A stretch of DNA of 64,000 nucleotides, taken from the NCBI GenBank assembly GCA_019247305.1, contig JAFAPC010000019.1:3437-67436 (forward strand). The letters run 5' to 3'. The number at the start of each line of letters is the position of its first letter. The stretch's first letter is position 1. A program made the translations under genes and the position numbers. Shown piece by piece: positions 17,113 to 56,222 of the stretch. This DNA is from Pseudonocardiales bacterium (GTDB lineage: Bacteria > Actinomycetota > Actinomycetes > Mycobacteriales > Pseudonocardiaceae). The notes beneath the pieces are model-generated. The model did no database searches. It had not been told where the DNA came from and saw nothing but the letters and a program-made list of their open reading frames with translations.

Positions 17113-17200
17113 AGCGCGCCTTCCGCCGCTGCCTCCATCACGGTACGCCGCTCGCAGCACTGGAGTGGACACCAGGCCTGAGGTGTCGCAAGGTGGTGTG

Positions 17201-18067
17201 ATGCGGGCGGTATGGAAGGGCGCACTGGCCTTCGGGATGGTCAGCATCCCGGTGTGGCTGTATTTGGCTACCGACGACCGTTCCGTGTCCTTCCACCAGC
17301 TGCACGAGCAGGACGCCGGTCGGATCCGTCACCGCCGGGTGTGCACGGTGTGCGGCGAGGAGGTCGCCTACGCCGACCTCGCCAAGGGCTTTGAGCTGCC
17401 CTCCGGGGAGACGGTGCTGCTGACCGAGGAGGATCTCGCGAACCTGCCGCTGCCCACCACCAAGATCGTGGAGTTGGTTGCCTTCGTGCCCGCGGACCAG
17501 ATCGACCCGCTCGCGCTGTCCCGCGGGTATTACCTGGAGCCCGAGCCGGCCGGCCGCAAGCCCTACGAGCTGCTCCGCGCCGCGTTGGACCGCACCCAGC
17601 GGGTAGGCCTAGCCAAGATCGCGGTGCGGAGCAAGGAATCGCTGGCGGCGCTGCGGCCCCGGGGGGATACTCTCGTCCTGCAGACGATGCTCTGGCCGGA
17701 TGAGATCCGACAGGCCGAGTTCGACGTGCTGAGCCGGGAGGTCGGTATCAGCGCGGCGGAGGTGCGGATGGCCGAGGGACTGATCGAGGCGATGACCGCG
17801 GACTTCGTGCCCGAGGCCTACCACGACGGCTACCGCGAGGCGCTGTTGTCCGTCATCGAGGCCAAAACCGCCGGTGAGGACGACACTGCCCGCCTAGCAC
17901 CGGCGCCAGCCGGCGAGCCGACCCCGGCGGGGGATCTGCTCAGTGCCTTGGCCGCCTCGGTCGCCTCGGTGGAAGCCGCCAAGGCCGCCTGCGCCGCGCC
18001 GGTGACCGTGCCCGCCCAGCGCGCCCGCCTTGATCCCGCCGGCCACCGCCCGCAGCGGCGCCGATGA
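17201..18067 (+). CDS. ku: Non-homologous end joining protein Ku
   Basis: MRAVWKGALAFGMVSIPVWLYLATDDRSVSFHQLH...RIRHRRVC is the canonical bacterial Ku N-terminus. Confidence 0.9.
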   Translation: MRAVWKGALAFGMVSIPVWLYLATDDRSVSFHQLHEQDAGRIRHRRVCTVCGEEVAYADLAKGFELPSGETVLLTEEDLANLPLPTTKIVELVAFVPADQIDPLALSRGYYLEPEPAGRKPYELLRAALDRTQRVGLAKIAVRSKESLAALRPRGDTLVLQTMLWPDEIRQAEFDVLSREVGISAAEVRMAEGLIEAMTADFVPEAYHDGYREALLSVIEAKTAGEDDTARLAPAPAGEPTPAGDLLSALAASVASVEAAKAACAAPVTVPAQRARLDPAGHRPQRRR

Positions 18068-18088
18068 GGGCGCGGTCTGGGTAAGGCG

Positions 18089-19699
18089 ATGTCCGATCTC
18101 ATCCGGCCGATGTTGCCGGTGGCGGGGCCGCTGCCGGGTGGGCCCGGCTGCCCGCCCGAGTTCAGCACCGTCGAGTTCCGCTGGGCGTTCGAGTTCAGCT
18201 GGGACGGGATCCGCTGCCTGGCCAGCGCCGAGCCTGACCGGATGCGTCTGTTCAGCGGCACACACCGGGACATCACCGCCAGCTACCCCGAGCTGGCCGC
18301 ATTCGCGGGGCGACGCCGAATGCTGCTAGACGGCAAGATCGTCGCCCTGGACTCCTGCGACCGGCCCAGCTTCGCGCGGCTCGCGCGGCGGATGAACGCG
18401 CCGCGCCCCACGTCGATGCTGCTGCGCCAGGTGCCGGTGAGCTACTACGTGTTCGATCTGCTGAGCCTGGATGGCCGCTGCACCACCGGGCTACCCTACC
18501 AACGCCGTCGGGAGCTGCTGGCGGACCTGGAGCTCACCGGGGAACTCCTGGTGGCCCCACCCTGCTTCCTGGATACCGACGGCCAGACGGTGCTGGACAC
18601 CGCCGCCCAGCACGGCTTACCGGGAGTGATCGCCAAGCGGGTGGATTCGCTTTACCAGCCTGGCCGGTCCCGCAGCTGGGTGCGGACCACGCTGCGGCAG
18701 ACCCAAGAGGTGATCATTGGTGGGTGGGTGGCCGAACGCCGCCGCGCCGCCGGCCTCGGTGCGCTGCTGGTGGGGGTGCCGACCGAGGAGGGTCTGCGAT
18801 ACGTCGGCCAGGTCGGCATCGGTTTCACCGAGCGCAGCCGCCGGGAGTTGCGTGAGCGGTTAACCGAGCTGGCCGCGCCCGCCAGTCCCTTTGCCGACGA
18901 GGTGGTGCCGAGCTCTGATCGGCTGGTGCACTGGGTGGCGCCGCGGCTGTTGGGGGAGGTGGCCTACCAGCACTGGACCCGCCATGGGCGGCTGGGGCAT
19001 TCCAGCTGGCGCGGGCTACGTCCCGGCAAGCATCCGGCGGCGGTGCGCACGCCGGTGGTGCTCAGTGCCCGCGAGGGCGACGACGCGGGAGCGGAGCAGG
19101 AGCTGATCGCCGAGCTGGACCGCGCCGTCGCGCAGGTGCGCGCCGAACTGCGGACGCTGCGCGATCAGATCTCCCCGCACTTTCTGCATAACACGGTCAG
19201 CACCATCGTCGCCCTGATCAGCACCGACCCGTCCCGGGCCCGCGACCTCCTCATCGTTTTCGCCGAGTTCGCCCGGTACTCGCTGCGACGGGCCACGCAG
19301 ACCACGCTGGATGACGAACTGGAGAACATCGAGCGTTACCTGACGCTGCAACGGGCCCGCTTCGGTGCCCGGCTGCAGGTGCAGTTTCAGGTGGTGCCCG
19401 GCGCGCTGCCGGTCGCGCTGCCCTTCCTGGCGCTGCAGCAGCTGGTGGACAACGCGGTGCGCAACGGCATCGAGCGCAAGCAGGTCGGCGGCACCGTCAC
19501 GATCTCCGCTCGCTTGGAGGGGCCGGAGTGCCTGATCACCGTCGCGGACGACGGACCCGGGGAGCAGGACGCTGACCTGCTGGCCACCCTGCAGACGATT
19601 GACGATCAGTTGCACGAGGGGTTCGGCGAGCGCTCCGCCGTGGTAGCCGATCTCGTCCCCGGCAGTGGCACCACCATCTCCCTGCGCGTACCCCGCTGA
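18089..19699 (+). CDS. Chimeric ORF: ATP-dependent DNA ligase (LigD LigDom-like) lacking the motif I lysine, fused to a LytS/YehU-type histidine kinase core (His_kinase + HATPase)
   Basis: Ligase part: PMLPVAG..., motif I reads FEFSWDGIRC (Ser codon at 18197-18199 where Lys is expected), motif III YYVFDLL, ending WRGLRPGKHPAAV. Kinase part: LRDQISPHFLHNTVSTI (H box), LQQLVDNAVRNGIE (N box), ADDGPGE (G1). No TM region and no adjacent response regulator. Confidence 0.7.
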   Translation: MSDLIRPMLPVAGPLPGGPGCPPEFSTVEFRWAFEFSWDGIRCLASAEPDRMRLFSGTHRDITASYPELAAFAGRRRMLLDGKIVALDSCDRPSFARLARRMNAPRPTSMLLRQVPVSYYVFDLLSLDGRCTTGLPYQRRRELLADLELTGELLVAPPCFLDTDGQTVLDTAAQHGLPGVIAKRVDSLYQPGRSRSWVRTTLRQTQEVIIGGWVAERRRAAGLGALLVGVPTEEGLRYVGQVGIGFTERSRRELRERLTELAAPASPFADEVVPSSDRLVHWVAPRLLGEVAYQHWTRHGRLGHSSWRGLRPGKHPAAVRTPVVLSAREGDDAGAEQELIAELDRAVAQVRAELRTLRDQISPHFLHNTVSTIVALISTDPSRARDLLIVFAEFARYSLRRATQTTLDDELENIERYLTLQRARFGARLQVQFQVVPGALPVALPFLALQQLVDNAVRNGIERKQVGGTVTISARLEGPECLITVADDGPGEQDADLLATLQTIDDQLHEGFGERSAVVADLVPGSGTTISLRVPR

Positions 19700-26575: not shown

Positions 26576-29263
26576 TTACCCGGGGACGTGGGCGCGGGTG
26601 GGTTTTCTCCCGGCATGGTCTCGTACGCCCCCGGCGAGCCGGTCTTGCAACCGGGTGTCCCGGAATTGATACATCGGGCCGACCGTTCGCAGGATCTGAC
26701 GCTGACGAGCATCGTCGAGAAACCGCAGCAGGCGTACTGGAGCATTGTTCCGACGCCGCAGCTGCGCGGTAGCGAGCACGACCACCCAGGTGGCGGAGGT
26801 CACCAACCCTGACCCGAGCCCGGCCAGGAGCCCGCTCGTGAGTCCGTATACGAGCCCGTACGAGAGTCCGTAGGAGAACCCATTCTTAAGCCCGTACAGG
26901 AGCCCGACAACCAGCCCCGTGATGAGCCCAGCCACGAGCCCGCCCTGAAGCTCCCGGCGCCACAATGACCGAGGATCGAGCGGACTCGCGGCCTCCATTG
27001 GTGGTCTGAGCCCCAGCAGGAGCCCAGCCGTCAGGCCGAAGCTGAGCCCCGTGGCGAGGCCGACCCCCACATCCATACCGCTCGTGAACTCGTACCAGAG
27101 CCAGATAACAGGCCCGGCCATGAGCCCGGTGAGCAGCGCTGCGGGAGTGGCAGTTCTGCTCCACCGGAGTTGGCTGCGTTGCCGAACAAGTCGTCCGCCG
27201 CGGATGACCAGCAAAACGTAGATGATCCCGTAGCCGCCGGCACTCACGAGAGCGGTGAGGAGCCCGATGAGCAGCGTTGCGGGGGTGGCAGTTCTGCTCG
27301 ACTGGAGTTGGCTGCGCGGCAAGGACGTCCGTCCCCCGATCACGATCACCAACAGGTACCCGATTCCGACGACGACTCCGTACTCGAGTCCGCTCACGAG
27401 CCCGCTCCTGAGCCCGTACCCGAGCCCGACCACCAGACCAACCACCAGACCGACCACGAGCCCGGTGCGGAGATTTGTGCGGGTATCAGTTCTGTCCCAT
27501 CGCAGCCAACCCAGCCGCTGAGGCGGTCCGCCCCCAAGGACAAACCCCAGCCCAACCACAAAACTCGATATCAGCCCGACCACGAGCCCATACCAGAGCC
27601 CGTACCGGGGCCCATACCGGGACCCGTACAGGAAGCCATACGAAAGCCCGAGCCCGACCCCGACTCCGGCCCCAAGAAGGAGAATCACGAGGACGTCGGT
27701 GCTGCTCCACCGCAGCTGCTCCGGCTGTGGAGACGATCGTGCACCAAGTGGGGAGATGAGAAGCAACCCGGGCCCAAACATGAACGCGTACCCGAGTGCC
27801 CAGGCGAAGACGGCGGCGAGCCGGGTCGAGGGTCCGGCGTGGAACACAGCGGGCTGAATGTGGGTTATCGGTCCAGCGAGGGCCCAGACGAGGAGCGCCG
27901 AGACCAGGACCATGACGGCTACCGTGGCCACCGCGCGAGGCCATGTCGGCACCCAGCGCGGGATTCGCCACCAGGCCAGGTCGCGGGTCCCGTCCTCGTT
28001 CATCCGGTGGGCCAACTGCCCCAACCATCGCCGGGCCTGACCCACGGTGTACAGCGGGACTGGCCGATCGGGGTGTGGAGTGTACGCGGTGGTCAGGACC
28101 CGATCCAGAAGATGATCCTCGATTGTCCCTCGGGTGGCGAACCGGCGAGGGTCCAGGAGCTCATCGACCGCCTCCCCGGGGCGATAGGTGTCCCGGAGCA
28201 GGGTCAGCGTCAGCGGCGTGGTCAGGGCGCGGGCCAGCACCCCTTCGGGATGCTCCCGCAGGTGATCAACTACTCGCTGCCAGGGGGCAGGCAGCGGGTT
28301 AATCAGAGCGCTGGTCAGGTACTCCGCCGCCTGCTGCGGGTCGATCGGCTGGAGTTCCAGCGCCGCCGCGCCCCCCAGGTGACCGCCGCCGACCGCAGCC
28401 TCCAGCTCCTGGGTACGGGTGAGCACGACCAGCCGGAAACCCTCCGACGCCCCCAGCGCGCCCAGCGCCGTCAAGCGCAGCGCCTCAGGGATCTCATCGA
28501 ACCCATCAAGGATCACCGCCACATGACCGTCCTCGATGAGGCGCATCGCGGCATCCTCGCCGTACTCCGGAGCCCGCAGCAGGGCGTAATCCCGGGTCAA
28601 AGCGGTAGCCAGCCACTCGGCGAAGGGTTGTGTGGTCGGGTCCCAGCCCTGCGGGGTGACCAGCACTGGAACCGGCACCCGCGCCCGGTCCTCGGCCGCT
28701 ACCGTGGCCCGCTGGGTCAGCGCATCACGCAGCAGCACCATCCCGGCGCCGCTTTTGCCCGCACCCGGCTCGCCTAGGATGATCAGCCGCCCGGAGCCGA
28801 GGCCCCCGTACACGTGGAGGAGATCCTCCAGCGTCCCGGACTGGAGATCCTCGGTGGTGACCGCCGTCATCGTGGGCAAGGGCACGAACGGCCCCCGGAC
28901 AGCCTCCGTCATCGGACCCGTCACCTGCCGGAGTGACCATCGCCACCGCAGGGAAATCGGTGCCGGGCGGACCAGCCCTCGCTCGGCAGCGGCCCGCTCC
29001 CACTGCCGCCGCAACTGCTCAGCCAGCTCATCCGCGGCCCGCTCTAACGGCAACTGCGCAGGCACGGTGGATTGCGCTCGTCTCCACAACTCGCCAACGA
29101 GACCGCCCCCAGTACTGACCACGGTGACAAGCGTCCGAAGCTCATCCGGCGAGTACCGAGTGCCGGCGTAGAGGTGAAAGACCACAACCTCGACCCCGGC
29201 CGTCGCCGCAGCGATCAGTATCAGCCCTATCCAGAACCAGAGAGGCAGCCGCCTCAGCGTCAT
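26576..29263 (-). CDS. NACHT-family NTPase with N-terminal TM helix and C-terminal multi-pass glycine-zipper repeat region
   Basis: Walker A ILGEPGAGKSG, Walker B VAVILDGFDEI. The C-terminal ~400 aa has about 5 modules beginning (Q)LRW(S/D)(S/R)T followed by GLxxGLxxGL-rich TM hairpins. Tail RLLRFLDDARQRQILRTVGPMYQFRDTRLQDRLA. Confidence 0.8.
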   Translation of the reverse strand: MTLRRLPLWFWIGLILIAAATAGVEVVVFHLYAGTRYSPDELRTLVTVVSTGGGLVGELWRRAQSTVPAQLPLERAADELAEQLRRQWERAAAERGLVRPAPISLRWRWSLRQVTGPMTEAVRGPFVPLPTMTAVTTEDLQSGTLEDLLHVYGGLGSGRLIILGEPGAGKSGAGMVLLRDALTQRATVAAEDRARVPVPVLVTPQGWDPTTQPFAEWLATALTRDYALLRAPEYGEDAAMRLIEDGHVAVILDGFDEIPEALRLTALGALGASEGFRLVVLTRTQELEAAVGGGHLGGAAALELQPIDPQQAAEYLTSALINPLPAPWQRVVDHLREHPEGVLARALTTPLTLTLLRDTYRPGEAVDELLDPRRFATRGTIEDHLLDRVLTTAYTPHPDRPVPLYTVGQARRWLGQLAHRMNEDGTRDLAWWRIPRWVPTWPRAVATVAVMVLVSALLVWALAGPITHIQPAVFHAGPSTRLAAVFAWALGYAFMFGPGLLLISPLGARSSPQPEQLRWSSTDVLVILLLGAGVGVGLGLSYGFLYGSRYGPRYGLWYGLVVGLISSFVVGLGFVLGGGPPQRLGWLRWDRTDTRTNLRTGLVVGLVVGLVVGLGYGLRSGLVSGLEYGVVVGIGYLLVIVIGGRTSLPRSQLQSSRTATPATLLIGLLTALVSAGGYGIIYVLLVIRGGRLVRQRSQLRWSRTATPAALLTGLMAGPVIWLWYEFTSGMDVGVGLATGLSFGLTAGLLLGLRPPMEAASPLDPRSLWRRELQGGLVAGLITGLVVGLLYGLKNGFSYGLSYGLVYGLTSGLLAGLGSGLVTSATWVVVLATAQLRRRNNAPVRLLRFLDDARQRQILRTVGPMYQFRDTRLQDRLAGGVRDHAGRKPTRAHVPG

Positions 29264-29725: not shown

Positions 29726-30292
29726 TTAGGGGTGCAGCGCGCCGGTGCGCAGCTGCGCGAGCGCATCATTGATCTCGTCAAGGTCGAAGCGGGCAGGGTC
29801 GTAGCCGGGCTCGCCGATCTGCTCCATCCAGTCAAGAGAGAACGCATGCTGGGGATGCTTGGCGTCGCCGAGGGCGTCGATCAGCTGAGCGAAGCCCCAC
29901 GGGCCGCCGCAATCCTCGGGTGGGCAGGCCCGGCGCCCGGTCACACATCGCGGGTAGCTCAGCGCCGGATCGGCCCGGTCGATGGCCTCCACCTGGATGT
30001 CGTGCCACCAGTCATCACCGAAGTCGTACCAGTAGGCGAAGCGCTGACCGACCTGCAACCCGGCCAACGTCCGGCGCGCCTCGTCTGTGGTCTCCCCGAG
30101 CAGGTGCTCCGGGTCAGCGTAGTAGTGGCCGTCCACCTCGAACTGGTGTAAGTGGCAGTCCTGCCAGCCCATCGCGACCTGGATGATGTGGTGCAGCTGC
30201 GCGAGGCTGGTGGTCGAGGGCACCTGCAGACGTCGCCAGACGGGCGGTTTCATGGACCGCAGCGACACCTTGATCGTGTGAATGCTCGGCAT
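29726..30292 (-). CDS. Plasmid pRiA4b ORF-3-like family protein
   Basis: IHTIKVSLRSMKPPVWRRLQVPSTTSLAQLHHIIQVAMGWQDCHLHQFEV...YWYDFGDDWWHDIQVE...CPPEDCGGPWGF are signature motifs of that family. Confidence 0.8.
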   Translation of the reverse strand: MPSIHTIKVSLRSMKPPVWRRLQVPSTTSLAQLHHIIQVAMGWQDCHLHQFEVDGHYYADPEHLLGETTDEARRTLAGLQVGQRFAYWYDFGDDWWHDIQVEAIDRADPALSYPRCVTGRRACPPEDCGGPWGFAQLIDALGDAKHPQHAFSLDWMEQIGEPGYDPARFDLDEINDALAQLRTGALHP

Positions 30293-30329
30293 CGGGCGAC
30301 CCTATTTGCTCACACTCGGCGCTGTCGTT

Positions 30330-30587
30330 GTGGGCTATGCTGTGGCCATCCGTCTGCACATCACGCTCGATGACACGCTGGTGAGAGACCTCGACCATAT
30401 CATCGGCGCCCGGGAGCGGAGCAGCTTCATCGCCACAGCAGTGCGCCGGGCCATCGACGAGTACCAACGCTCCGAGGCACTCGAGGCCGCGCTGGGCTCC
30501 ATCATGGACTCCGAGCATGACTGGGATACCGATCCGGGAGCTTGGGTGCGCGCGCAACGCACCGATCGGGAGCAACGGGCCAGCTGA
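30330..30587 (+). CDS. Type II antitoxin (ribbon-helix-helix/VapB-like)
   Basis: IRLHITLDDTLVRDLDHIIGARERSSFIATAVRRAIDE is RHH-like. The stop overlaps the vapC start (TGATG). Start is uncertain (GTG 30330/30342, or 30282). Confidence 0.6.
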   Translation: MGYAVAIRLHITLDDTLVRDLDHIIGARERSSFIATAVRRAIDEYQRSEALEAALGSIMDSEHDWDTDPGAWVRAQRTDREQRAS

Positions 30588-30979
30588 TGCGTGCCCTGAT
30601 CCTCGACACTACTGTGCTCATCGACGCTGTGCGGGGGCGACCCGCCGCGGCACGGCTGCGCGATCTCGCGTCACGACGTGAGGTGCTGCTGACCACCGCG
30701 ATCAACGCCGAGGAGATCATCCGTGGGTTACGGCCGAGCGAGCAGGCCGTGGCCGACGCGCTGTTCAGCGCGATCCGGGTGCTCCCGGTGCGGGAGCCCG
30801 ACGCCCGGCGAGCCGGAGTGTGGCGACGAGAACACGCTGCCCGGGGCATCACGCTGCACCAGGCCGACTGCCTGATCGGCGCGGTCACCGCCGGGATTGG
30901 CGCTCGGCTGGCCACCGGCAACCCCAAAGACTTTCCGATGCCCGAGGTCACCGTGGAGGAATGGCCTCCCGGCAGCTGA
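30587..30979 (+). CDS. vapC: PIN-domain toxin VapC
   Basis: MRALILDTTVLIDAVRG...LTTAINAEEIIRG...ADCLIGAVT carries the conserved acidic PIN residues. Confidence 0.8.
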   Translation: MRALILDTTVLIDAVRGRPAAARLRDLASRREVLLTTAINAEEIIRGLRPSEQAVADALFSAIRVLPVREPDARRAGVWRREHAARGITLHQADCLIGAVTAGIGARLATGNPKDFPMPEVTVEEWPPGS

Positions 30980-31016: not shown

Positions 31017-31693
31017 TCAGGTTCGTAGCCGCCCCAGTAGCTGCGCGGGCACGACTTCGGTGAGACCACCCCGTGCCATGGGGGACTGACACTCCAGGCT
31101 CGCTGCTCGGTCTGGGAGGAGTCCGTGCAGTCGCAAGCCGACCGGGAAAAGCTCGATGGTGACGAACCGGCTGATGACGGAACCGGTGTCCTGGTAACCG
31201 AATTCCGCGCCGAGATGGCAAGCGATCAGCGCCACTGGGGCGTCAAAGTCCACGATCCAGTAGTGCGGGAAACCCGCGTCGGCGTACTCACCACGCTTGA
31301 TCACATGATCGGTGCGGTGTGAACCAGGTGAGACGATCTCGACGACGACCAGCACGTCGCACGCGCGCAGGACGCCTCCGTCGCGACGTACCCGCCGAGC
31401 GCCGCTCGGTGCCCGACGACCAGGTCCTGGCCTGCGGACGAACCCAGGTTTGCCGCGCGGCGCACGTTCGAGTGGACGAGGAGCCTCGCCATGGCGACCA
31501 TGTGATCCGTCGCCGCGTCGTCCAGGGTAACCTGCAGCAGGACCCGGCTGGTCGGGTCCATCGTGGTCTCCCACAGCTCCTTGGCGCACAACACGCTGCC
31601 CGACGGATGCTCCCCGGAACCAATGTTCGCAAACTTCCTGATCAGTGCGTACGTGCTCAAAGTGCCACATTCTGCGCGTGGCCGCGGAGCCAC
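31017..31693 (-). pseudogene. Uma2-family endonuclease relic: intact C-terminal half, with the 5' half in another frame and containing a gyrB-derived segment
   Basis: Frame of ORF 31017..31913 gives DVLVVVEIVSPGSHRTDHVIKRGEYADAGFPHYWIVDFDAPVALIACHLGAEFGYQD. The upstream part is readable only in the frame of ORF 31301..31693 and includes [24 protein letters not shown] (a gyrB C-terminus-like sequence). Confidence 0.5.
31507..31586 (-). repeat. ~80-bp paralogous copy of the gyrB 3' coding end
   Basis: 31507-31585 aligns without gaps to 36735-36813 with 7 mismatches in 79 nt, same orientation, offset 5228 bp. Confidence 0.8.
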
Positions 31694-31815: not shown

Positions 31816-33354
31816 GTGAGGCGAAGTGGGGCCGGAGTCTCCGCCGCGACCGTATGCGCTGTGCTGCTGGCGTTGTTCTCAACGTTGTCAGCCATGGCTT
31901 TGTCTTCGGACACACCTCAGGCTTCTTTGAACGACGTAGTTAAATCACTCGGGGTCGCCTCGTCCCCCGTTGACTACGTCATCATCGTAGACACTTCGGG
32001 TTCCATGCAGGACTCGGGCTTGTATCCCAAGGCGAAGACGGCTCTTGGGTCTTTTCTCCAAGCATTGAAGCCGACGGACCACCTTTCCCTCTTGACCTTC
32101 GACACAACCGCCACGCTGCGGTACACGGGCACCGTCGGAAGCGATCCTCGATCGCCGCTCAACCAGCTGCCCCCTACGGCTACCGGAGAGGCCACCGATA
32201 TCGGAGCTGGCATTGAGACAGGCATCGCCGAACTCGAGCGCCCGAATGCCAACGCCGTAGGTGCAATCGTCTTGATGACGGACGGCAAGATTCAGGCACC
32301 GCCCGGCTCCGTGTATCCGACGCCTTCGGCACCAGCGTGGAATGCGCTCCAAGAGAGGGCACGCAAGGTTGCGACGAAACACCAGATCGCCTCCTACGCC
32401 CTCGCACTCGAGCCCACCACGGACGCTGCGCTTCTCAAGAAGGTCTTCGCCGATACCTTGGTCGTTGCGCTGCCCAGCGACCAGATTGAGGGCTACCTCG
32501 ACCGGGTTAGCGCCAACTCAATGCGCCAGAAGGCAATCCAGGCCCTGCAGCCCGACCTGGGCAATGGGGTCGAAGCGAGCATGAGCGGACCACTCGATAA
32601 CCTCGACCTAGGCAAAGGAACTGCCGATGTCAAAGTGACACTCCGTTCAACCTACACCAAGATTCCGGTCACAATTAATCCGTCTGCCAGCGTCACCGGT
32701 GACCTGCAGGCCACCGCATCCGGACTACCTGCTTCAATTAACCTGGAGCCCGGCCAAAGCAAACCGTTCACGCTACGGCTAACTTTTCCGACGGCTGGCG
32801 GATCTGGTCCAGGTGGAGACCCTTCTACTCGCAGTGGCAAGGTTACTCTCGCCGGTACCATCAGCAGCCCATGGCAGCAGGTCATTACCTCCGAGCTAGG
32901 ACTGGCGTTCACGCCAAAACTGGCGACCCCACCGGTCGATATCACGGGCCACGGCACGACGGGCTGGCGTCGGCTTAGCCCCGGTGCCTTGATACCTGCT
33001 CCCGTCCTCTTCATTCTTCTGATGATAGGGCTCTTCATTCTTCTGATATGGACAGTACGACGCTCCCGCATGCCCCGCCTGGTCGGAGTACTCGAGTTGT
33101 GGCACGAAGGCCAACTCGCCTCAGATTTTCTGCTTGGCGGCAAGGTGCTCAAACTCGGGAAGGGCGCGCGCAGCGTCCCCGGCCAACCCCTCAGCGGCTC
33201 CGTGCGTGGCCTGCGCCGCCGTGACGAGAACGACGGACTGGAAGCTGGCGTGAACATTCAGGCGAAGTCGGGTCGTGCGCGTTGTCAAGGACGACTCTTC
33301 GACGGCGACTCCCTTGAAGTCGGCGAGGTCACGATTACCTACAAGCGCCCCTAG
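31816..33354 (+). CDS. Membrane-anchored von Willebrand factor A (vWA) domain protein
   Basis: Signal peptide; MIDAS DTSGSM ... TDIGAGI ... LMTDGK. A middle beta-rich region is followed by TM LIPAPVLFILLMIGLFILLIWTV and a ~95-aa cytoplasmic tail. Confidence 0.8.
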   Translation: MRRSGAGVSAATVCAVLLALFSTLSAMALSSDTPQASLNDVVKSLGVASSPVDYVIIVDTSGSMQDSGLYPKAKTALGSFLQALKPTDHLSLLTFDTTATLRYTGTVGSDPRSPLNQLPPTATGEATDIGAGIETGIAELERPNANAVGAIVLMTDGKIQAPPGSVYPTPSAPAWNALQERARKVATKHQIASYALALEPTTDAALLKKVFADTLVVALPSDQIEGYLDRVSANSMRQKAIQALQPDLGNGVEASMSGPLDNLDLGKGTADVKVTLRSTYTKIPVTINPSASVTGDLQATASGLPASINLEPGQSKPFTLRLTFPTAGGSGPGGDPSTRSGKVTLAGTISSPWQQVITSELGLAFTPKLATPPVDITGHGTTGWRRLSPGALIPAPVLFILLMIGLFILLIWTVRRSRMPRLVGVLELWHEGQLASDFLLGGKVLKLGKGARSVPGQPLSGSVRGLRRRDENDGLEAGVNIQAKSGRARCQGRLFDGDSLEVGEVTITYKRP

Positions 33355-33375
33355 GTGCCCGAGAGAGGTGCATAC

Positions 33376-36300
33376 ATGTATAACTCAGCTTTGGTCATCG
33401 GGGCCGGCGGTACCGGTCGTTGGGTGCTGACGCACCTCCGCGCCCGCATCCTGGGCATGTCTGGCTGGCTCTCGGGCGAGAGTCCGGCTCCCTTGGGAGG
33501 CGTCCGACTCGTCGGATTCGACATCGATAGCCAGAACGCCTACGAGTTCGCGGGGCATGGGCTGACGGAATCGGACCTCGTTTTCTCGACGCCAGAAATC
33601 GCGGACGTAATCCGCAACATTCGCGATGTCCCGGACGGTGATCACCGCGCGCTATACCAGGAGGTGCGGGAATGGATCAGCCAGCGTGAGGCAGAGTCCT
33701 ACGATCTGGCATTGCTCAATGAATTCATGGAAACAGGCGCCGGACAGATGCGTCAGTGGGGGCGTCTGGGCGTCGTTCTCGCCAAGGGATTCTATGATCA
33801 TCTTCGGACCGCAGTTGGAAGCTTGGCAGCTGGCGGTCAAGTGAATGTTTATGTGACCGGCTCGCTCTGTGGCGGCACAGGTTCGGCGACCATTTTTGAC
33901 GCAGCAGCCATCGTTCACGACGTACTAAAATCAGTCGCGCCAAATACACCACGCCGGATCATCGGAGTCTTTCTCCTGCCAGCGGGAATGACGCATGACG
34001 TTAACCCCGCCGAGTTTCCTTGGCTAGAAGCCTGCGCCTTCGCTTCAATGCGGGAGCTCGACCGCTTCCAACGCAGCAACGGTCGAAATCGACTCAAGCA
34101 CGATGGCCGTAAGATCGTGCTTGGCTCTCGCCTGTTCGATCTATGCTACTTATTAGACGGCATCCGCGACCACCACGGAGGCGCGTTGCCGCCTAATAAT
34201 CTCATTAACAACAAGGCCAGCTTGGGCGTTTATCCCGCCATGGCCGACTTGATATTTAGCTACCTGAACCCCGCATCCGGTCAGCGGCTAGACGCCGACG
34301 CCGCCAATGCGGTCGCCCATGTCGGCGGCAGCCATCCCTATAAGTATAGCAAGTTCGGCACGCATACGCTGTGGTCACCGTTGCCGCTCGTCCAGCGGTC
34401 CCTCGCTATTGACGACGCGCTCGCGGTGCTCAACGCCCTGACCAGCCAAACCGCCGTGGGCGACGTGCCGAGCTTAGTGTCGACACCGGCAGTCACCTTC
34501 GAAGATAAAAACATCTTCAACGCGCAAGTCTTCCTCGCTGCTCGGCGCTACGACGAAGATGGGAAGGCTCAGGCACCGCGCGCCGCTGAAGTACTACCCT
34601 GGCTGTTGCCGGCCGACCCGGAGTTTAAGCCAAAGATCCCGTCGAAGCCAGACTATGCAAGCCGCGAGTTTCCGAACATCAGGAATTTCCACACTCCGTA
34701 TCGAAACCCGGAGGTAAAAAGCCGCGTCGACGAGCTCCTCAACAAATACTTGGCTGATATACAAATTCTAACGGACAGTCACCGGCGTCAGCTCTTGGCA
34801 GATTTCCGCACCTACTTGCTGGTTCGGTGCCAGCGCATCGCTAATACACCTACGGTGCAGGGAGGTCTGGCACGCGCACTGAACTCATTGAAAGAAATCA
34901 AAGGGGTCGCCGATAGGCTTCGTGAGAGCTTCACTAAGCTCAACGAGATCGAAGCTCGAAGTGGTCGGCTAGACGGGCTGCGCGGGGCCTACCGCAATGC
35001 TCAGATGGCGATGGATGACAACAAGCGCTGGAACGACGCCATGAAACAGCGCCACCTTTTCGAGGCCGCGAATCGCCTGATGGAGGCTGAGATCGACGCT
35101 CAGGTTCGGGCGAAACTGATTGATCTCATGGAGCGGCTTTCCGCGACCATCGACGACGTACGCGACAAGGAACTCGACGGCTGGCGGCGAACCTTCGAGG
35201 ACCTTGCTGGCCAGGCCAGCCAAGCTTCGGCAGATCTTGATCGGATGTGGAACGAGCATACATCCGTAGTCGTCCGGCAGGTTATCCTCACCCGCCACTC
35301 AGGCTTGGAGGTCGCTGCTCGGCAACGTCTCACGGACGGCTTGCTGAACCGGCTGCCAGCAGACCGGAACACCGTGATCGCATCACCAGCAACAGCGTTC
35401 GTCGAGCAGAAGTTGAGCTGGACCGTTGGCCGCAGCGCGGCAACTGATCAATTTACCCTGATGCTACGCCACCCGTGGATGGAAGGTGACCGGCATGAGC
35501 TCAAGCTGCTCAAGCTGCGCGACCTGCTGCTTCCTTTGGAGTCTTCGTATGCGTTCGTGCTTGACACGCCGTTTGGAGAGGCACTAAGGCACAGTTCGAA
35601 GGATATCGCCGGCCTCGCGTCAGATATCCGTAAAAAGACCAGCCTCTTGGCGTCTACTTCACCTGAGCCGGGTACGAAACCCGCGCCGTTGCCTACAAAG
35701 CAAGTTCTACTCTTCGGTCCGTGGGGTGACGGAACTCCTGAGATACGCCAACTCCGTGACGAGCTCGCACGCCTAGGCTTTGCCGGAGGCGAGTTCGAAG
35801 ACGTCTTGCAGCTTACCGCAGCCGACTCCGTGGCGGCTCGCGACGTTCCGCTCAACCAGAGCGTCTGGGTGGTTCACAGCTACCATGGCGTTAGCTTTGA
35901 TGGCTTCGGTACGATGGACAAACTTCGTCAGGGCTATCTCACCCTCCGGGAAGGTGAAAAGCCGCTCCATGTGTTCCCAGAAGAGCGTGCGGCCAGCTTA
36001 ATTGAGAAGCGGATCTCGGAACTCTTTCACGCCGGACTGGTATCTAGTCGAATCGATCTGCTAGGGCCAGAAGCCGTTGGGCTGGCTCGCGAGAGTCGCC
36101 TTATTAGGCAAGTCGTGCTGCTCATCGCAGCGAAACAGCTGGAGTGGCGATTCAACCGAGTCGATGACTGCGGCGAGTGGGTCCTATACACCGAAGGGAG
36201 TCAATCCCTAGTGCTCGCCGCTAGCGATAAGGCGTTGAACCTTCTTCCAACTTTGGTTGATCACGCAGCACAAACCTCGGATTCTATCAGCAAGAGAATC

Positions 36301-36477
36301 TTGGACGCGATCGACAAGACAGCTCGGGGAGTCAGTGATTTTGACGATGACAGTGAGATCGCAAAAAGACTTACAGCCATTGCGGAGGGATCGATCGACG
36401 AGCCTGGGATTAGTGATCTAGACGAAGACATGAAGATGATGATCAGGATTAGTAGTTGGACATTGCTCGGATCCTGA
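33376..36477 (+). CDS. Tubulin/FtsZ-superfamily 'tubulin-like' GTPase domain protein (1033 aa) with long helical C-terminal region
   Basis: ATG 33376 after GAGAGAGGTG, 19 nt after the vWA stop. T1-like loop ALVIGAGGTGRWV, GAGQMRQWGR, and tubulin-signature-like TGSLCGGTGSATIFD. Confidence 0.8.
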   Translation: MYNSALVIGAGGTGRWVLTHLRARILGMSGWLSGESPAPLGGVRLVGFDIDSQNAYEFAGHGLTESDLVFSTPEIADVIRNIRDVPDGDHRALYQEVREWISQREAESYDLALLNEFMETGAGQMRQWGRLGVVLAKGFYDHLRTAVGSLAAGGQVNVYVTGSLCGGTGSATIFDAAAIVHDVLKSVAPNTPRRIIGVFLLPAGMTHDVNPAEFPWLEACAFASMRELDRFQRSNGRNRLKHDGRKIVLGSRLFDLCYLLDGIRDHHGGALPPNNLINNKASLGVYPAMADLIFSYLNPASGQRLDADAANAVAHVGGSHPYKYSKFGTHTLWSPLPLVQRSLAIDDALAVLNALTSQTAVGDVPSLVSTPAVTFEDKNIFNAQVFLAARRYDEDGKAQAPRAAEVLPWLLPADPEFKPKIPSKPDYASREFPNIRNFHTPYRNPEVKSRVDELLNKYLADIQILTDSHRRQLLADFRTYLLVRCQRIANTPTVQGGLARALNSLKEIKGVADRLRESFTKLNEIEARSGRLDGLRGAYRNAQMAMDDNKRWNDAMKQRHLFEAANRLMEAEIDAQVRAKLIDLMERLSATIDDVRDKELDGWRRTFEDLAGQASQASADLDRMWNEHTSVVVRQVILTRHSGLEVAARQRLTDGLLNRLPADRNTVIASPATAFVEQKLSWTVGRSAATDQFTLMLRHPWMEGDRHELKLLKLRDLLLPLESSYAFVLDTPFGEALRHSSKDIAGLASDIRKKTSLLASTSPEPGTKPAPLPTKQVLLFGPWGDGTPEIRQLRDELARLGFAGGEFEDVLQLTAADSVAARDVPLNQSVWVVHSYHGVSFDGFGTMDKLRQGYLTLREGEKPLHVFPEERAASLIEKRISELFHAGLVSSRIDLLGPEAVGLARESRLIRQVVLLIAAKQLEWRFNRVDDCGEWVLYTEGSQSLVLAASDKALNLLPTLVDHAAQTSDSISKRILDAIDKTARGVSDFDDDSEIAKRLTAIAEGSIDEPGISDLDEDMKMMIRISSWTLLGS

Positions 36478-36534
36478 TCGCGGTCCGACCCAGTAGTGCC
36501 GCGGGTACGACACGGAAACCACGCGCTCTGAGTG

Positions 36535-36596
36535 CGCCGAGTTCGACACCAACGTCGTCCGGACAGCCGGGAACAGCTCTCGTGTCGAACTCGGCG
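36535..36596. repeat. REP-like hairpin element, copy B (acts as bidirectional terminator between tubulin-like gene and gyrB)
   Basis: 15-bp inverted repeat cgccgagttcgacac (36535-36549) / gtgtcgaactcggcg (36582-36596). Confidence 0.7.
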
Positions 36597-36636
36597 ACAA
36601 CAGGGCGGTGGCTTCACGGCGGTGCTGGGAACCGGG

Positions 36637-38628
<1,992 letters not shown>

Positions 38629-38768
38629 CTACGGACGTCAGGGGCCTCACGTCTCGGGGGTACTGCATCATGTGCTGCCGGTAGCCGCTGGGCGGAGCGG
38701 GGGTTCCTCAGCACCGGCTACCAGCACCATTTTACCGGTGAGCTCACTCAGAAGGAGGGCGAGGACGC

Positions 38769-38816
38769 CCCGCTTGGTCCCCAGCTTGGTCCCCAGCTTG
38801 GTCCCCAGCTTGGTCA
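38769..38816. repeat. 12-bp tandem repeat x4 (ccagcttggtcc) upstream of gyrB
   Basis: cccgcttggtcc ccagcttggtcc ccagcttggtcc ccagcttggtca, located 170-215 bp upstream of the gyrB start. Confidence 0.8.
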
Positions 38817-39172
38817 CAGACGCCCGAACAGCGACGTCTGCAAGACCCCCTCGGCCTCACCACCGACGGTAGGCGTCCTGGCGACCAGGCGAGGACCGTG
38901 AGACGTCCGAGGCGCTCGCCGCCGTGGCTGGCGACCAGCAGGCAACAAGGCGCGAAGACGGCTGTGGCTGGGGTGCCTTGGCGGTTCGCTGCGGGGGCGA
39001 ATATATCAAGCATCTACTCGATCCTGAAACCATACCTGCGCAATACCATAAACCACCCGGTGCGACTGAACGCACATTGTCGGACAATCGCTCCGGTTAT
39101 CGTCACCTTGAGCCTTTGCAGAAGTCTTCGGTGGCTGAAGCGTTCTGGACGCCAGCTGGTACCGCTCTGGGT

Positions 39173-39236
39173 GCGCCGAGTTCGACAGGAGGGCTGTTGG
39201 GGGCCTGGTGCAGAGCTCTGACGTCGAACTCGGCGC
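39173..39236. repeat. REP-like hairpin element, copy C
   Basis: 14-bp inverted repeat gcgccgagttcgac (39173-39186) / gtcgaactcggcgc (39223-39236). The left flank cgctctgggtg is shared with copy B. Confidence 0.7.
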
Positions 39237-39393
39237 GCTCAGCGCGGCCGAGCGACGACGGGCGGTGCCCAGCGATCCGCACGGTGGGGACCAGCGCTGA
39301 ACGCGCTGGCGTTTCGTTATCCTGCTTTTCGCATGAGCTTCCTTGTGCTGCACCGGTAGCAGAAACCTTATCTAAAGACGCGAAGCGGTGCTT

Positions 39394-39455
39394 GATCGCC
39401 GAAACTGTGGTGTGGCCGTGCACTCCCGCACGGCCACACCACAGTTTCGGCGATC
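39394..39455. terminator. Perfect 28-bp inverted repeat hairpin (6-nt loop) downstream of the DUF721 gene
   Basis: gatcgccgaaactgtggtgtggccgtgc (39394-39421), loop actccc, gcacggccacaccacagtttcggcgatc (39428-39455). Confidence 0.6.
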
Positions 39456-39556
39456 ATCAGGTGGGTCCCTGCCTGCAGTGGGCTGCGGGACGCCTGCGGT
39501 GTTACCAGTCAGCCGTGCCGCCGACGTCGGCCAGCCCAGAGTTCGAAACGAGTCGT

Positions 39557-40207
39557 TCAGCCGTAGGTGTCTCGGGGGCCGCGGCCACGGACGTGGCGGG
39601 GACCGTGCACCCAGGTTGGCGCCGCTGGTGCCTGCACCCGCAGCGCCGTGACCACGCCCGGCCCGACGCCTGCGGTGATCCGGGTGAGCAGCTGTCGTTG
39701 CAGGAGGCGCAGCTGAGTGGCCCACGCGGTGGAGCTGGCCCGCACAATGAGCTCCCCGTGCGCCAGCGACACGGGCTGGGCGTGCTCGGCGACCTCGGCG
39801 CCCACCAGCGCTGCCCAGCGGGCGAACACCACACCGGAAGCCACGTGCTCGGTCCAGCCACGTTCGGCGACCAGCCGGGAGGCCAGGGCGCCCAGCGGCT
39901 GGGGGTCCCGGTTATCCGGGCGCGCCCCGGACCAGCCGCGGCGGCGCCGCGCTGCGGCGGGACGGCCAGCGGGGGTGCGGCCAGCGGGGGTGCGACGCCC
40001 AGCGCGGGCGGCTGCCAGGGCGGCGCGGGCGATGTCAGCGCCACTGCGCCCCCTGGGTAAAGGCTGGGACTCCTCGGGTAGGGTCTGGTGCCCCCCGGGT
40101 GGGGTCGGGGAGGGACTGTCGGGCTCTTCAGACGTCGACTTATCCACACTATCCACAGGTTTGTCCCCATCTCTATCTCTGGATCCGCTCAGTAAACCCG
40201 GCATCAT
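39557..40207 (-). CDS. DUF721 (DciA-like) protein
   Basis: Sits in the conserved position between recF and gyrB with an ATGA overlap to the recF stop. C-terminal [19 protein letters not shown]...[21 protein letters not shown] is typical of DUF721. Confidence 0.8.
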
Positions 40208-41379
40208 CGGAGTCGGCGCACGGTCCCGCCGTGCACGTCGAACCGCGCGCCCGCCAGCTCCGCGGGGACATCGGCGGGTACGGCGGCGGTGACCAGCACC
40301 TGCTCGGCAGCCAGCGCGACCTCGGCCAGCCGGGCCCGGCGCTGGGTGTCCAGTTCGGCAAAGACGTCATCGAGCAACAGCACCGGTTCGGCACCACCGC
40401 AGCGCAGCAACTGGTAGCTACCCAGTCGCAAGGCCAGCGCGAACGACCACGACTCGCCGTGGCTGGCGTAGCCCTTGACGGGCCGGCCGCTCAGCCGCAA
40501 CCCCACATCGTCGCGGTGCGGACCGACCAGGCAGACCCCACGCTCCAGCTCCGCCGGGCGCACCCGAGCCAGCTCCATGAGCATCGCCTGCTCCAGCGCC
40601 GCGATATCGGCCTTGCCCGCCCCAGCCGTGCCCGGCGCCACGCCCTCGCCCAGGCTGCTGCGGTACTCCAGTTGGGCGCTCGCCGCCTCTGGGGCCGGGT
40701 TTGGGACCAACTCGGGGGCCACGGCGTGGTAGGCGGCCACGACATGCGGGGCCAGCTCGACGACCAGGTCCAGCCGGGCGCCAAGGAGTTCGGCGCCGTG
40801 CCGGGCGAGGTGACCGTCCCAGACGTCCAGGGTGCGCAGATCACCCGCCCCGCCCTCAGGCCGACGGGCCGCACCGGCGGAACGCAGCAGCGCGACGCGC
40901 TGGCGCAGCACCTTGTCGTAGTCGGCTTGCACGCCGGCCAGCCGGGGGGAGCGCAGCACCAGGAGATCGTCGAGGAACCGGCGGCGCACCGCTGGATCCC
41001 CGCGCACCAACGCCAGGTCCTCCGGCGCGAACAGCACGCTGCGCAGCACGCCGAGGATCTCCCGGGGCCGTGGCATCGGGCAGCGGTTGAGCCTGGCCCG
41101 GTTGGCGCGTCCGGGGGAGATTTCCAGCTCCACCGTCAGCTCCCGGCCGGCGTGCACCACGGCGGTGCGCACGATGGCGCGCTGGGCGCCCTGGCGGACC
41201 AGGGGCGCATCGGTGCTCACCCGGTGTGAGCTCAGCGTGGCCAGGTACCCCAGTGCCTCCAGCAGGTTCGTTTTGCCCTGCCCGTTCGGGCCGATGAGCA
41301 CCGAGACACCGGGGTCGAAGTCCAGCTCGGCGTGTTCCCAGGAGCGGAAATCCGTCACCGCAAGCTGTCGGACGTACAC
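40204..41379 (-). CDS. recF: DNA replication/repair protein RecF
   Basis: GTG 41379. [46 protein letters not shown] (Walker A), [11 protein letters not shown] (Walker B). The long ORF extension upstream is not coding. Confidence 0.95.
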
Positions 41380-41384
41380 CGGCG

Positions 41385-42290
41385 CTAGTTCGCTGCGGGA
41401 TCGGGGCTGGCCGGTTGCTGCACGGCGTGCCCACCGAACTGGTGGCGCAACGCGGCCACCGCGCGCATCGCTGGGGAGTCGGACTGGCGGGAGGCGAACC
41501 GGGCAAACAACGCCGCGGAGATCACCGGAGCGGGCACCGCGTGGTTGATCGCTTCCTCGACCGTCCAGCGGCCCTCGCCGGAGTCGGCCACCCACCCGCG
41601 TAGCTGGGTGAGTTTCGGGTCCTCCGCCAAGGCCGCGACGAGCAGGTCCAGCAGCCAGGAGCGGACCACGGTGCCGCGTTGCCACGCCTTGAGCACCGCG
41701 GGCACGTCGGTGACGACCTCGGCGGCCTCCAGCAGTTCGAAGCCCTCCGCGTAGGCCTGCATCAGGCCGTATTCCACCCCGTTGTGCACCATTTTGGCGA
41801 AATGCCCGGCGCCGACGCCGCCAGCGTGCACGAAGCCTTCCTCCCGAGGCCCCTCCGGGCGCAGCGCGTCGAACACCGGCAGCACTCGCTCGACGTGCTC
41901 GCCCGAGCCGCCGACCATCAGGGCGTAGCCGTTGCGCCGACCCCACACTCCCCCGGACACACCGCAGTCCAGATACCCGATGCCGGCTCGGGCGAGTAGC
42001 TCGGCGTGGACCTGGTCATCGGTGTAGCGCGAGTTCCCGCCGTCAATGACGAGATCACCTCCGGTGAGTAACCGGGCCAGCTGGATCACGGTGTCCCGGG
42101 TCGCCTCACCAGACGGCACCATGATCCATACGCTGCGCGGTGGCGAGAGGCGTTCCACCAGCTCAGCCAGGGAGCTGACGTCCCGGCTGGGGTCGGTGCG
42201 GGCGAAACCGAGCACCTCGATGCCAGCGGCGCGCAACCTCTCGCGCATGTTGGCGCCCATCCGACCCAATCCGACGAGTCCAAGCTGCAC
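41385..42290 (-). CDS. gnd: 6-phosphogluconate dehydrogenase, decarboxylating, short (Gnd-like) form
   Basis: GTG 42290 after [22 protein letters not shown] Rossmann motif, [33 protein letters not shown]. Confidence 0.9.
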
Positions 42291-42372
42291 GAGGTGTCCT
42301 CCCAAGTAGTGCGTGCCCCTACCGTAGCGGCGCCTGCCCTGGGTCGGTGTCATCGGATCCTGACCCTCTGGC

Positions 42373-42614
42373 GCATCCACCGCTGTCCACGACCCGGGTG
42401 TTTGGGGTTTTCTGAGAAGAAGAGAACACCTCGTAGCAGTAGTAGGGACTGTGGGCGGTGTGGACGGGTGTCCATCGGGCCAGTTCCCTCGGCGTGGTGC
42501 GGTGTGGACAGCCCCGGGTGCCCTGACGCGGGGCGGGCGGGCGGGCGGTGGACAGCATCGGTGCGCGGGGCCGCGATGCACAGCCACGCCCAGTTATCCA
42601 CAGAGTTGTCCTCA
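42373..42614. promoter_or_regulatory. Cluster of DnaA-box-like 9-mers (candidate oriC remnant or active oriC)
   Basis: gcATCCACc 42373-42381, cTGTCCACg 42383-42391, TGTGGACg 42459-42466, TGTGGACAG 42503-42511, GGTGGACAG 42547-42555, TTATCCACA 42594-42602 (perfect), TTGTCCTCA 42606-14. An AT-richer stretch lies at 42400-42430. Confidence 0.55.
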
Positions 42615-56178: not shown

Positions 56179-56222
56179 CCGCTGACTCCCCTTCGGCCGG
56201 TGGTAGACGCCAGGAACGCTGC

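Follow-up and report, generated by a model that had tools for sequence, protein, structure and literature searches.

The window analysed here, a 64,000-nt stretch of contig JAFAPC010000019.1 (68,313 nt) from a Pseudonocardiales bacterium (assembly GCA_019247305.1, positions 3,437 to 67,436), carries a cassette of two genes, one for a vWA protein (gene 1) and one for a giant tubulin-like protein (gene 2). We confirmed that this pair is a member of the FtsZl1-vWA type, operons of which were predicted by comparative genomics (Makarova and Koonin 2010, Biol Direct 5:33). Our preferred reading, to which we give a probability of roughly 0.45, is that the cassette is a self-contained vWA-FtsZl1 module, acquired horizontally, whose two products form a receptor-scaffold pair spanning the membrane. 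Pfam Tubulin_2 (PF13809) is the FtsZl1 family of the 2010 paper. The supplement of that paper names actinobacterial vWA/giant-FtsZl1 pairs, SGR_3834/3833, Xcel_1379/1378 and MCAG_00588/00587, from Streptomyces griseus, Xylanimonas and Micromonospora, respectively. The find is therefore less novel than the initial annotation of this DNA implied; both the gene pair and its occurrence in actinobacteria were already published, so that the genomic find is unsurprising. What is new here is that the pair is the only content shared by ten of ten related loci, that its proteins co-evolve, that the tubulin-like protein has a private C-terminal module and no evident canonical T7 loop or activation domain, and that the GC content at third codon positions (GC3) is foreign.

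Gene 2 encodes a protein of 1033 residues (NCBI MBV9139628, annotated 'hypothetical protein'). It matches Pfam Tubulin_2 at E = 5.3e-28, with 98.7 bits against a gathering score of 27. The motifs IGAGGTG, GAGQMRQWGR and CGGTGSA, from which a tubulin-type protein had been read in the initial annotation, are conserved where they had been placed, and G9, G11, G12, G14, G121, R126, R130, G166, G167, T168 and G169 vary little or not at all among 42 family members. The structure was predicted by AlphaFold from the 42-sequence alignment, with a mean confidence score (pLDDT) of 89.6 and a predicted template modelling score (pTM) of 0.85. Foldseek comparison of this model with the PDB gave 24 matches at E <= 1e-3, and all 24 were CetZ, FtsZ or tubulin with probability 1.00. 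The best match was CetZ1 (4b46; 1.3e-4). Target-normalised TM-scores were 0.46-0.49, and FtsZ chains aligned over ~340 columns. Family and fold thus bear out the earlier proposal of a divergent FtsZ/tubulin GTPase paired with a vWA protein. In the viral fold library (BFVD), the model found weak PhuZ-type and phage-tubulin matches only. No hydrophobic segment was found in the protein, for which the highest Kyte-Doolittle window was 1.13. As judged from sequence and model, protein 2 is soluble and cytoplasmic, with a tubulin/FtsZ-fold domain that holds complete T1 and T4 GTP-binding signatures.

The predicted fold of the first ~360 residues, the T1 GGTG and the T4 GGTGSG-type signatures are shared with FtsZ, tubulin and CetZ (PF00091). 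Unlike these proteins, protein 2 has large inserts between S2 and T3 and a ~670-residue extension past the fold, and it lacks a conserved T7 acidic residue and an FtsZ_C or Tubulin_C domain; no second Pfam domain of any kind was found in it. The partner also differs: it is a vWA membrane protein here, whereas FtsZ works with FtsA, ZipA or SepF. The initial annotation had described ~800 residues of helical sequence after the N-terminal domain. A long helical region is indeed present, but the rest of the extension is mixed alpha/beta in the model (Table 1). Foldseek found no PDB fold match for this C-terminal region at E <= 1e-3. Sequence searches of the PDB, made with the single protein (phmmer) and with the 42-sequence profile (hmmsearch), failed to retrieve FtsZ or tubulin and gave no credible match to the C-terminus. 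With residues 420-1033 as phmmer query, only 18 relatives were found among 1.84 billion representative proteins, and these lie in the same C-terminal position of ~1000-residue proteins or are fragments. From these searches, the C-terminal module of ~600 residues appears to be confined to a very small clade. The gene 2 protein had no credible match in NCBIfam, PADLOC or PHROGs; the lone PADLOC match, ZorA, was at chance level (E = 0.051).

Gene 1 encodes a protein of 512 residues (NCBI MBV9139627, annotated 'VWA domain-containing protein'), starts with GTG and has the Shine-Dalgarno sequence GGGGGGA upstream. Residues 55-210 match Pfam VWA (1.6e-11; 45 bits against a cut-off of 23.8) and VWA_2 (1.8e-11). 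The residues of the metal ion-dependent adhesion site (MIDAS), D59, T60, S61, S63, T127 and D156, do not vary among 18 homologues. No other domain of the protein is as well conserved as the vWA domain, whose mean identity of 63% fits a constant ligand. Hydropathy analysis revealed exactly two hydrophobic segments, residues 3-31 and 386-417. The first corresponds to a putative signal peptide: hydropathy windows 3-31 exceed 1.6, the AlphaFold model has a low-confidence helix at residues 10-24, and an equivalent N-terminal hydrophobic segment is present in all homologues. The second holds a predicted transmembrane (TM) helix, and RRSRMPR follows just after it on the cytoplasmic side. In the model (pLDDT 87.8), a long helix (residues 221-247) links the vWA domain to a beta-sandwich, and the tail behind the TM helix is built confidently with eight strands within residues 424-510. 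The earlier description of a vWA protein with signal peptide, MIDAS, single TM helix and a tail of ~95 residues thus stands on Pfam, hydropathy and the 18 homologues. Protein 1 is predicted to be exported and anchored by one TM helix, with the MIDAS-bearing vWA domain and the beta-sandwich outside and a beta-domain in the cytoplasm.

Foldseek matched protein 1 to the vWA domains of ANTXR2/CMG2, TEM8, integrin beta3, SpaC, LapA and ArnB, with E reaching 7e-12, and its vWA-plus-beta-sandwich body also aligned with ArnB and with Sec23/24-type chains. The C-terminus of the tail carries an FHA-like motif, L..GDS..VG..TI.Y. We considered an FHA domain as the identity of the tail and rejected it. Ten tails gave no Pfam match at E <= 10, the tail had no PDB sequence match, and the phosphothreonine-binding residues (GR, SxxH, NG) were not recovered. 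An hhalign comparison of the tail with three approximate FHA sequences was colinear and non-significant (P = 0.049, probability 1%), and the resemblance is confined to the C-terminal L..GD..(V/I)G motif. The ArnA (FHA)/ArnB (vWA) proteins of Sulfolobus are similar in that the vWA-plus-beta-sandwich aligns structurally with ArnB and in the FHA-like tail motif. However, ArnB acts in the cytoplasm as a regulator of archaellum expression, the FHA likeness of the tail is without statistical support, and no kinase is found here.

The two genes are co-directional, and each is preceded by a ribosome-binding site; gene 2 starts with ATG behind the purine-rich site GAGAGAGG. The gap between them is 21 nt, not 19 nt as first counted. 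We compared ten clade loci, namely the window, two Nocardia, Spongiactinospora, Sphaerimonospora, metagenome-assembled genomes (MAGs) of Coriobacteriia and Actinomycetota, and metagenome contigs. An all-against-all comparison of their open reading frames (ORFs) revealed exactly two families common to 10/10 loci, the vWA and the tubulin-like proteins. The two genes adjoin in the same order in all ten, and the flanks are unrelated. Pairwise identities of the two proteins correlate with r = 0.89, a value reached in 0 of 5000 Mantel permutations, so that the supposed co-conservation of the pair is found in its relatives. At long range the vWA partner is 30-45% identical and the tubulin-like protein 20-23%, whereas this order is reversed at short range (49-60% versus 57-66%). 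These sequence comparisons suggest that the two genes form one operon, adjoin wherever they occur and evolve together. No third conserved gene lies upstream of the vWA gene, where the unannotated ~300-residue genes of three loci (L001, L003 and L005) do not cluster.

The clade is small. Close full-length homologues are rare, with 24 matches in 5.8 billion clustered proteins, and a homologue of >50% identity is present in two of 185,579 GTDB species representatives, both of them Nocardia (cultured). Measured against the Nocardia homologues, neither window ORF is truncated (100% coverage), and identical proteins are also encoded on independent 5.9-kb JGI and ENA contigs. In the wider family, 80 loci were compared, and in 66 of them an ORF of at least 200 residues ends on the same strand no more than 400 nt upstream of the Tubulin_2 gene; Pfam VWA is matched at E <= 1e-3 by 25 of these 66 ORFs, and across the alignment of all 66 the MIDAS residues D59 and D156 show at least 90% conservation. 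The window pair shares with the FtsZl1-vWA operons the Pfam family, a vWA gene immediately upstream of a ~1000-residue FtsZl1 gene, a signal peptide/TM on the vWA partner, an intact MIDAS, a non-canonical region past H5 and a coiled-coil/helical C-terminal extension. Unlike those operons, it is minimal, without GTPase_new, kinase, OmpA or B1-B9 genes, and the initial annotation was right to call it a minimal pair without the extra GTPase or OmpA-type genes. Unlike the wider FtsZl1 family, the clade is small, has the private 600-residue C-terminal module and shows a fixed partner architecture (signal peptide-vWA-helix-beta-sandwich-TM-beta-tail). Sister sub-clades add genes to the pair. In the Spongiactinospora/Sphaerimonospora sub-clade (L004, L016), a dynamin-like GTPase is added within the operon together with two further genes, one of which has a sub-threshold SrfB match only. 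In L005 and L012, the operon adds a 254-residue protein, a HerA/DUF87 ATPase and a 511-residue protein.

Strict 1:1 adjacency and co-evolution might also be expected of an assembly factor that works from the inside out, with the GTPase as a cytoplasmic chaperone or motor that controls how its vWA partner is exported, folded or clustered at the surface, as in MoxR AAA+ systems, and with adhesion or a surface structure as the function. Pairs of an NTPase gene and a vWA gene are recurrent (e.g., MoxR-vWA), and adhesins and receptors (SpaC, LapA, ANTXR2, integrin) are the structural neighbours of this vWA domain. We regard this explanation as distinctly unlikely. MoxR-vWA partners are on one side of the membrane, whereas the membrane separates the partners here; no pilin, sortase or secretion genes occur in any of the ten loci; and a simple chaperone role leaves the 600-residue private C-terminus and the helical region unexplained.

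The composition of the cassette is clearly foreign. GC3 is 0.68 and 0.65 in the two genes versus 0.82 +/- 0.04 in 12 neighbouring genes, and a similar deficit is found in a Nocardia sp. locus (L001) and in L006. An IS3-type transposase adjoins the pair in L087. On this sequence evidence the cassette appears to be horizontally acquired; the vWA-FtsZl1 module is accessory rather than housekeeping. Its site in the window is the chromosomal origin region (parA, yidC, dnaA, gnd, recF, dciA, gyrB). Both cassette proteins and GyrB correspond to NCBI MBV9139627-MBV9139629, exactly or within one 90%-identity cluster, and gyrB is convergent with the cassette, their stop codons being 159 nt apart. Acquisition had initially been read from a position between two copies of the gyrB 3' end. 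A repeat does exist, but it is an internal fragment of 85-90 nt that is 88% identical to positions 36735-36824, that is, 98-187 nt inside gyrB. It has the gyrB orientation and sharp borders, and it does not reach the stop codon. It looks like a recombination or integration scar, yet it is not a true gyrB 3' end. The fragment lies with a Uma2 remnant in ~800 nt of gene debris upstream of the cassette. Between the gyrB repeats there are two genes only and no integrase, and no tyrosine-recombinase H.LRH motif was found in the window. gyrA is absent beside gyrB and across the 64 kb, where no KPVHRR/HPHGD motif appeared in six frames.

A tubulin/FtsZ fold, weak similarity to phage PhuZ and tubulin and apparent horizontal acquisition could together point to a TubZ-like segregation system of a mobile element, in which filaments partition DNA. 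The likeness to TubZRC and PhuZ goes as far as a tubulin-fold GTPase on mobile DNA and the weak structural similarity, and this explanation is close to refuted. No TubR-like DNA-binding adaptor and no iterated centromere repeats lie beside the cassette, and the obligate partner is an exported membrane protein. The window locus is chromosomal, as are the loci in Nocardia and MAGs; distant relatives number only four among 72,556 plasmids, and none was found among the phages searched. The 1033-residue architecture is unlike TubZ or PhuZ and three times larger.

Table 1. Features of the cassette and its surroundings in the window, with the Thermaceae loci in coordinates of their own
Feature	Position	Strand	Basis or remark
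gyrB C-terminal coding fragment, 85-90 nt	31507-31596	-	direct repeat D6, pairwise alignment
Gene 1, vWA protein	31816-33354	+	ORF, Pfam VWA/VWA_2, AlphaFold, Foldseek
Putative signal peptide, residues ~1-28 (RR, hydrophobic core, SAMA/LS)	31816-31899	+	hydropathy, model
vWA domain, residues 53-218	31972-32469	+	Pfam, conservation
MIDAS DTSGS (D59-T-S-G-S63)	31990-32004	+	part of vWA domain, plus T127, D156
Predicted extracytoplasmic beta-sandwich, residues 252-382	32569-32961	+	DSSP of AlphaFold model
Predicted single TM helix, residues 394-417	32995-33066	+	hydropathy up to 2.91; helix in model
Predicted cytoplasmic all-beta tail, 95 residues (418-512)	33067-33351	+	model pLDDT 84-94
Gene 2, FtsZl1-type tubulin-like protein	33376-36477	+	ORF, ribosome-binding site, Pfam, AlphaFold, Foldseek
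Tubulin_2 (FtsZl1) nucleotide-binding domain, residues 6-300	33391-34275	+	Pfam
T1 IGAGGTG, residues 8-14	33397-33417	+	motif
T3-like GAGQMRQWGR, residues 121-130	33736-33765	+	motif
T4 signature CGGTGSA, residues 165-171	33868-33888	+	motif
Long helical / coiled-coil-like region, residues 444-630	34705-35265	+	DSSP; one 76-residue helix, 555-630
C-terminal alpha/beta region, residues 634-1031	35275-36468	+	DSSP; clade-specific
Palindromic element, ~85 nt	36524-36608		between convergent stops; repeats D11, D12, I11
Intact gyrB	36637-38601	-	ORF; exact match NCBI MBV9139629, 'DNA topoisomerase (ATP-hydrolyzing) subunit B'
Thermaceae megaplasmid loci	L168 5363-14455; L169 7392-15351; L171 7294-15371

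How such a receptor-scaffold pair might work can be outlined from the predicted topology. The cytoplasmic tail of the vWA protein would dock the tubulin-like protein under the membrane, and the complex would be clustered by GTP-dependent self-association of the latter. This self-association might use the GTPase domain and/or the helical region, possibly bypassing the head-to-tail T7 contacts of canonical polymers. In this way, metal-dependent binding of a ligand outside the cell, at the MIDAS, would be coupled to a sub-membrane scaffold, an arrangement formally like that between integrin and cytoskeleton. The likeness to the integrin beta I-like/TM/tail/talin-actin chain is an analogy only: both have an extracellular MIDAS, one TM helix and a short tail presumed to engage a cytoskeletal-type protein. 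Homology is limited to the vWA fold, the partner in the cytoplasm has a tubulin-type GTPase fold here, and the contact is a presumed one. The output would be local organisation or remodelling of the membrane or envelope rather than enzymatic attack, because neither protein has a detected effector domain. Candidate triggers are envelope stress, phage and a neighbouring cell. The absence of such a domain, the dynamin-like partner of the sister sub-clade and the vWA domain being best conserved all fit the receptor-scaffold reading. The dynamin-like GTPase also agrees with the family-level context in Makarova and Koonin (2010).

Several points weigh against this reading. That the tail touches the tubulin-like protein is wholly conjectural, and the window gives no functional read-out. 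In the literature searched there is no experiment on FtsZl1/Tubulin_2 proteins, in agreement with the earlier statement that no member has been characterised experimentally, and no defence-related work on them. Several relatives lie beside conflict-type genes, which favours a role in defence. The gene 2 protein did not match PF00091 in Pfam at E <= 1. Its hhalign comparison with FtsZ was significant locally only (E = 1.7e-3 over 71 columns, with approximate FtsZ sequences). This local alignment puts S4-T4-H4-S5 on residues 85-155 of E. coli FtsZ, and a global alignment failed. Mapping of elements from hhalign and secondary structure assigns helix 211-233 to H5, FDLCYLLDG to S6 and helices 285-316 to the H6/H7 region. 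In the loops past the putative H7 (residues 298-323), no conserved D/E was found in alignments of 13 and of 42 sequences. Where FtsZ and tubulin have a four-stranded activation domain, the model shows by DSSP one long strand (residues 324-333) plus helices. A canonical T7 catalytic loop and activation domain are thus not evident. Polymerisation and stimulated GTP hydrolysis are therefore uncertain, since the T7 acidic residue is unconserved and the canonical activation domain is not seen. The same doubt, on T6-H7 and filament formation, was raised by Makarova and Koonin (2010). Of the 'polymerising GTPase' in the initial annotation, the GTPase fold is retained, but an acidic T7-type residue and the canonical activation domain are not visible.

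In one clade locus (L006 8001-11075, a MAG), the tubulin-like gene consists of a 630-residue ORF and downstream pieces that match the C-terminus, and it is probably a pseudogene or an assembly frameshift. A homologue broken into pieces, the T7-type catalytic residue and canonical activation domain that are not evident and the gene fragments beside the cassette (the gyrB piece and the Uma2 remnant) could suggest a non-polymerising GTP-binding switch or pseudo-enzyme, or a decaying passenger without current function. This is very unlikely in our view. The window ORFs are full length relative to those of Nocardia, the nucleotide-binding and MIDAS motifs are invariant, and the models are confident. 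Moreover, the pair is conserved over 20-80% identity, which argues for purifying selection and against a switch or passenger.

A bolder version of the receptor-scaffold reading, which we hold to be unlikely, is an integrin-like outside-in device. In this version, the MIDAS would be engaged by a phage protein, a neighbouring cell or a damaged envelope and would nucleate a non-canonical, T7-less polymer under the membrane, built by way of the helical region and the private C-terminal module and serving in immunity or repair. If true, this would add cytoskeleton-based surveillance systems as a new class and give an entire branch of the tubulin superfamily its first function.

Distant relatives of the pair were also observed on plasmids. 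In three Thermaceae genera, megaplasmids carry on one strand a vWA gene, a Tubulin_2 gene, a hypothetical gene (~680 residues) and a BrxL_N+BrxL_ATPase gene. The A. silvanus trio sits between two identical IS701-like transposase genes, one of which separates it from brxL; in M. taiwanensis, DUF1156, Swt1-HEPN and DUF4143 ATPase genes precede the trio. As in the window, the vWA gene is immediately upstream of the Tubulin_2 gene (~910 residues) on the same strand. The Thermaceae Tubulin_2 proteins are 27-29% identical to that of the window over the GTPase domain. Unlike the window protein, the vWA protein as annotated starts at the MIDAS and has no signal peptide in the annotated start, and two extra genes, including BrxL_N+BrxL_ATPase, are present there and not in the window. 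The idea that the third gene of the Thermaceae operon corresponds to the C-terminal half of the window protein was rejected (BLASTP E = 0.37). A 2026 survey of bacteriophage exclusion (BREX) systems leaves tubulin unmentioned, and the Thermaceae arrangement is possibly an undescribed BrxL-linked system. On plasmid p2 of Azospirillum sp. TSA2s (L170 5009-18861), a 1214-residue Tubulin_2 protein is encoded amid three caspase-family, three OmpA-family, DUF4384 and PEGA genes.

The main rival to the receptor-scaffold reading is a role in defence, and it is a serious one because genes for BrxL, HerA, a TIR-kinase and caspases adjoin distant relatives. In a dedicated conflict system (anti-phage or anti-competitor), attack would be sensed through the surface vWA domain or the envelope, the signal would cross the membrane, and GTPase assembly would block infection or arrest the cell, possibly through an unrecognised C-terminal activity. 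We consider this somewhat unlikely. The patchy, horizontally transferred distribution and the foreign composition would suit it, as would the variable stretch in which the cassette lies, with a VapBC-like pair, PRiA4_ORF3, the Uma2 remnant and a NACHT-like P-loop membrane protein. The HerA/DUF87 ATPase of L005/L012 is within the operon, and a TIR-kinase (PADLOC PD-T4-6-like, 4e-54) is adjacent. L003 has GT4-conflict, radical-SAM (weak pVip) and DUF87 neighbours. The three Thermaceae megaplasmids, with the trio upstream of BrxL_N+BrxL_ATPase and HEPN and DUF1156 at one of them, and the Azospirillum plasmid, with Tubulin_2 among three caspase-family genes and OmpA genes, point the same way, as do distant Tubulin_2 proteins fused to nSTAND1, AAA_22, kinase and vWA domains. 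However, the relatives linked to BrxL, caspase and HerA share no more than 24-29% identity over the GTPase domain, and four of the six fully annotated homologous loci lie amid metabolic or housekeeping genes, with the pair between groESL and the tsaD cluster in one of them. Neither protein and none of the window neighbours matched a PADLOC model, PHROGs gave no match either, and phages yielded no relative. Effector domains of the nuclease, protease, TIR or pore type were not detected. In addition, the presumed sensor domain is not diversified; within the receptor it is the part with the highest conservation.

Other features of the window were observed around the cassette. The palindromic element has a second copy at 39163-39247, and the two copies bracket gyrB (three matches versus 0 expected). 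Their RNA folds have energies of -56.9 and -65.2 kcal/mol (z -6.7 and -5.3), and a perfect 29-bp inverted repeat lies just past the second copy at 39393-39456 (z -11.7). The element is probably a bidirectional or paired terminator or a repeat of the REP (repetitive extragenic palindromic) or MITE (miniature inverted-repeat transposable element) kind. Rfam matched no family in the window, and promoter and terminator scans were uninformative. Just upstream of gyrB, at 38768-38815, there is a 12-nt tandem repeat, CCCAGCTTGGTC, in ~4 copies. On the other side of the cassette, the accessory cluster consists of PRiA4_ORF3 (29726-30292), VapB-like/PIN VapC (30282-30979) and the Uma2 endonuclease remnant (~31232-31358). 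It is preceded at 26576-29263 on the minus strand by a gene for an 895-residue membrane protein with a NACHT-like P-loop (GEPGAGKS, DGFDE) and no Pfam, PADLOC or PHROG match; the long C-terminal multi-TM region of this protein is made of 12-nt-periodic GxxxG-type repeats.

The origin region (37-64 kb of the window) is scrambled, with dciA at 39557-40207, recF at ~40204-41370, gnd at 41385-42593 and dnaA at 54673-56319. No dnaN ORF was found past dnaA, and 53.1-54.67 kb holds no convincing ORF. Between dnaA and gnd-recF lie ~11 kb of accessory genes, including an aminotransferase, a haem-oxygenase-like protein, a methyltransferase, a 1273-residue multicopper-oxidase ORF, DsbA and TetR. This order may be an assembly artefact of the MAG. 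At 16793-19699, a Ku gene is followed by one stop-to-stop ORF that joins LigD-type ligase, His_kinase and HATPase_c domains, through either an unusual gene fusion or reading across two separate genes. Low-GC patches at 7-9, 12-13 and 52-53 kb (0.56-0.60 versus ~0.66-0.70) suggest other acquired segments, and most ORFs at 7.9-13.8 kb had no Pfam match.

Within the tubulin/FtsZ superfamily, no branch diverges further than FtsZl1, which, sixteen years after its description, is without an experimental function in the literature searched. The window pair and its two cultured Nocardia relatives show the system in a two-gene form of clear topology, with the MIDAS receptor outside, the GTPase inside and one TM helix and a small folded tail connecting the two sides. 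This minimal pair makes it possible to test GTP binding and assembly without a canonical T7, recruitment by the tail, and envelope remodelling versus a role in defence.

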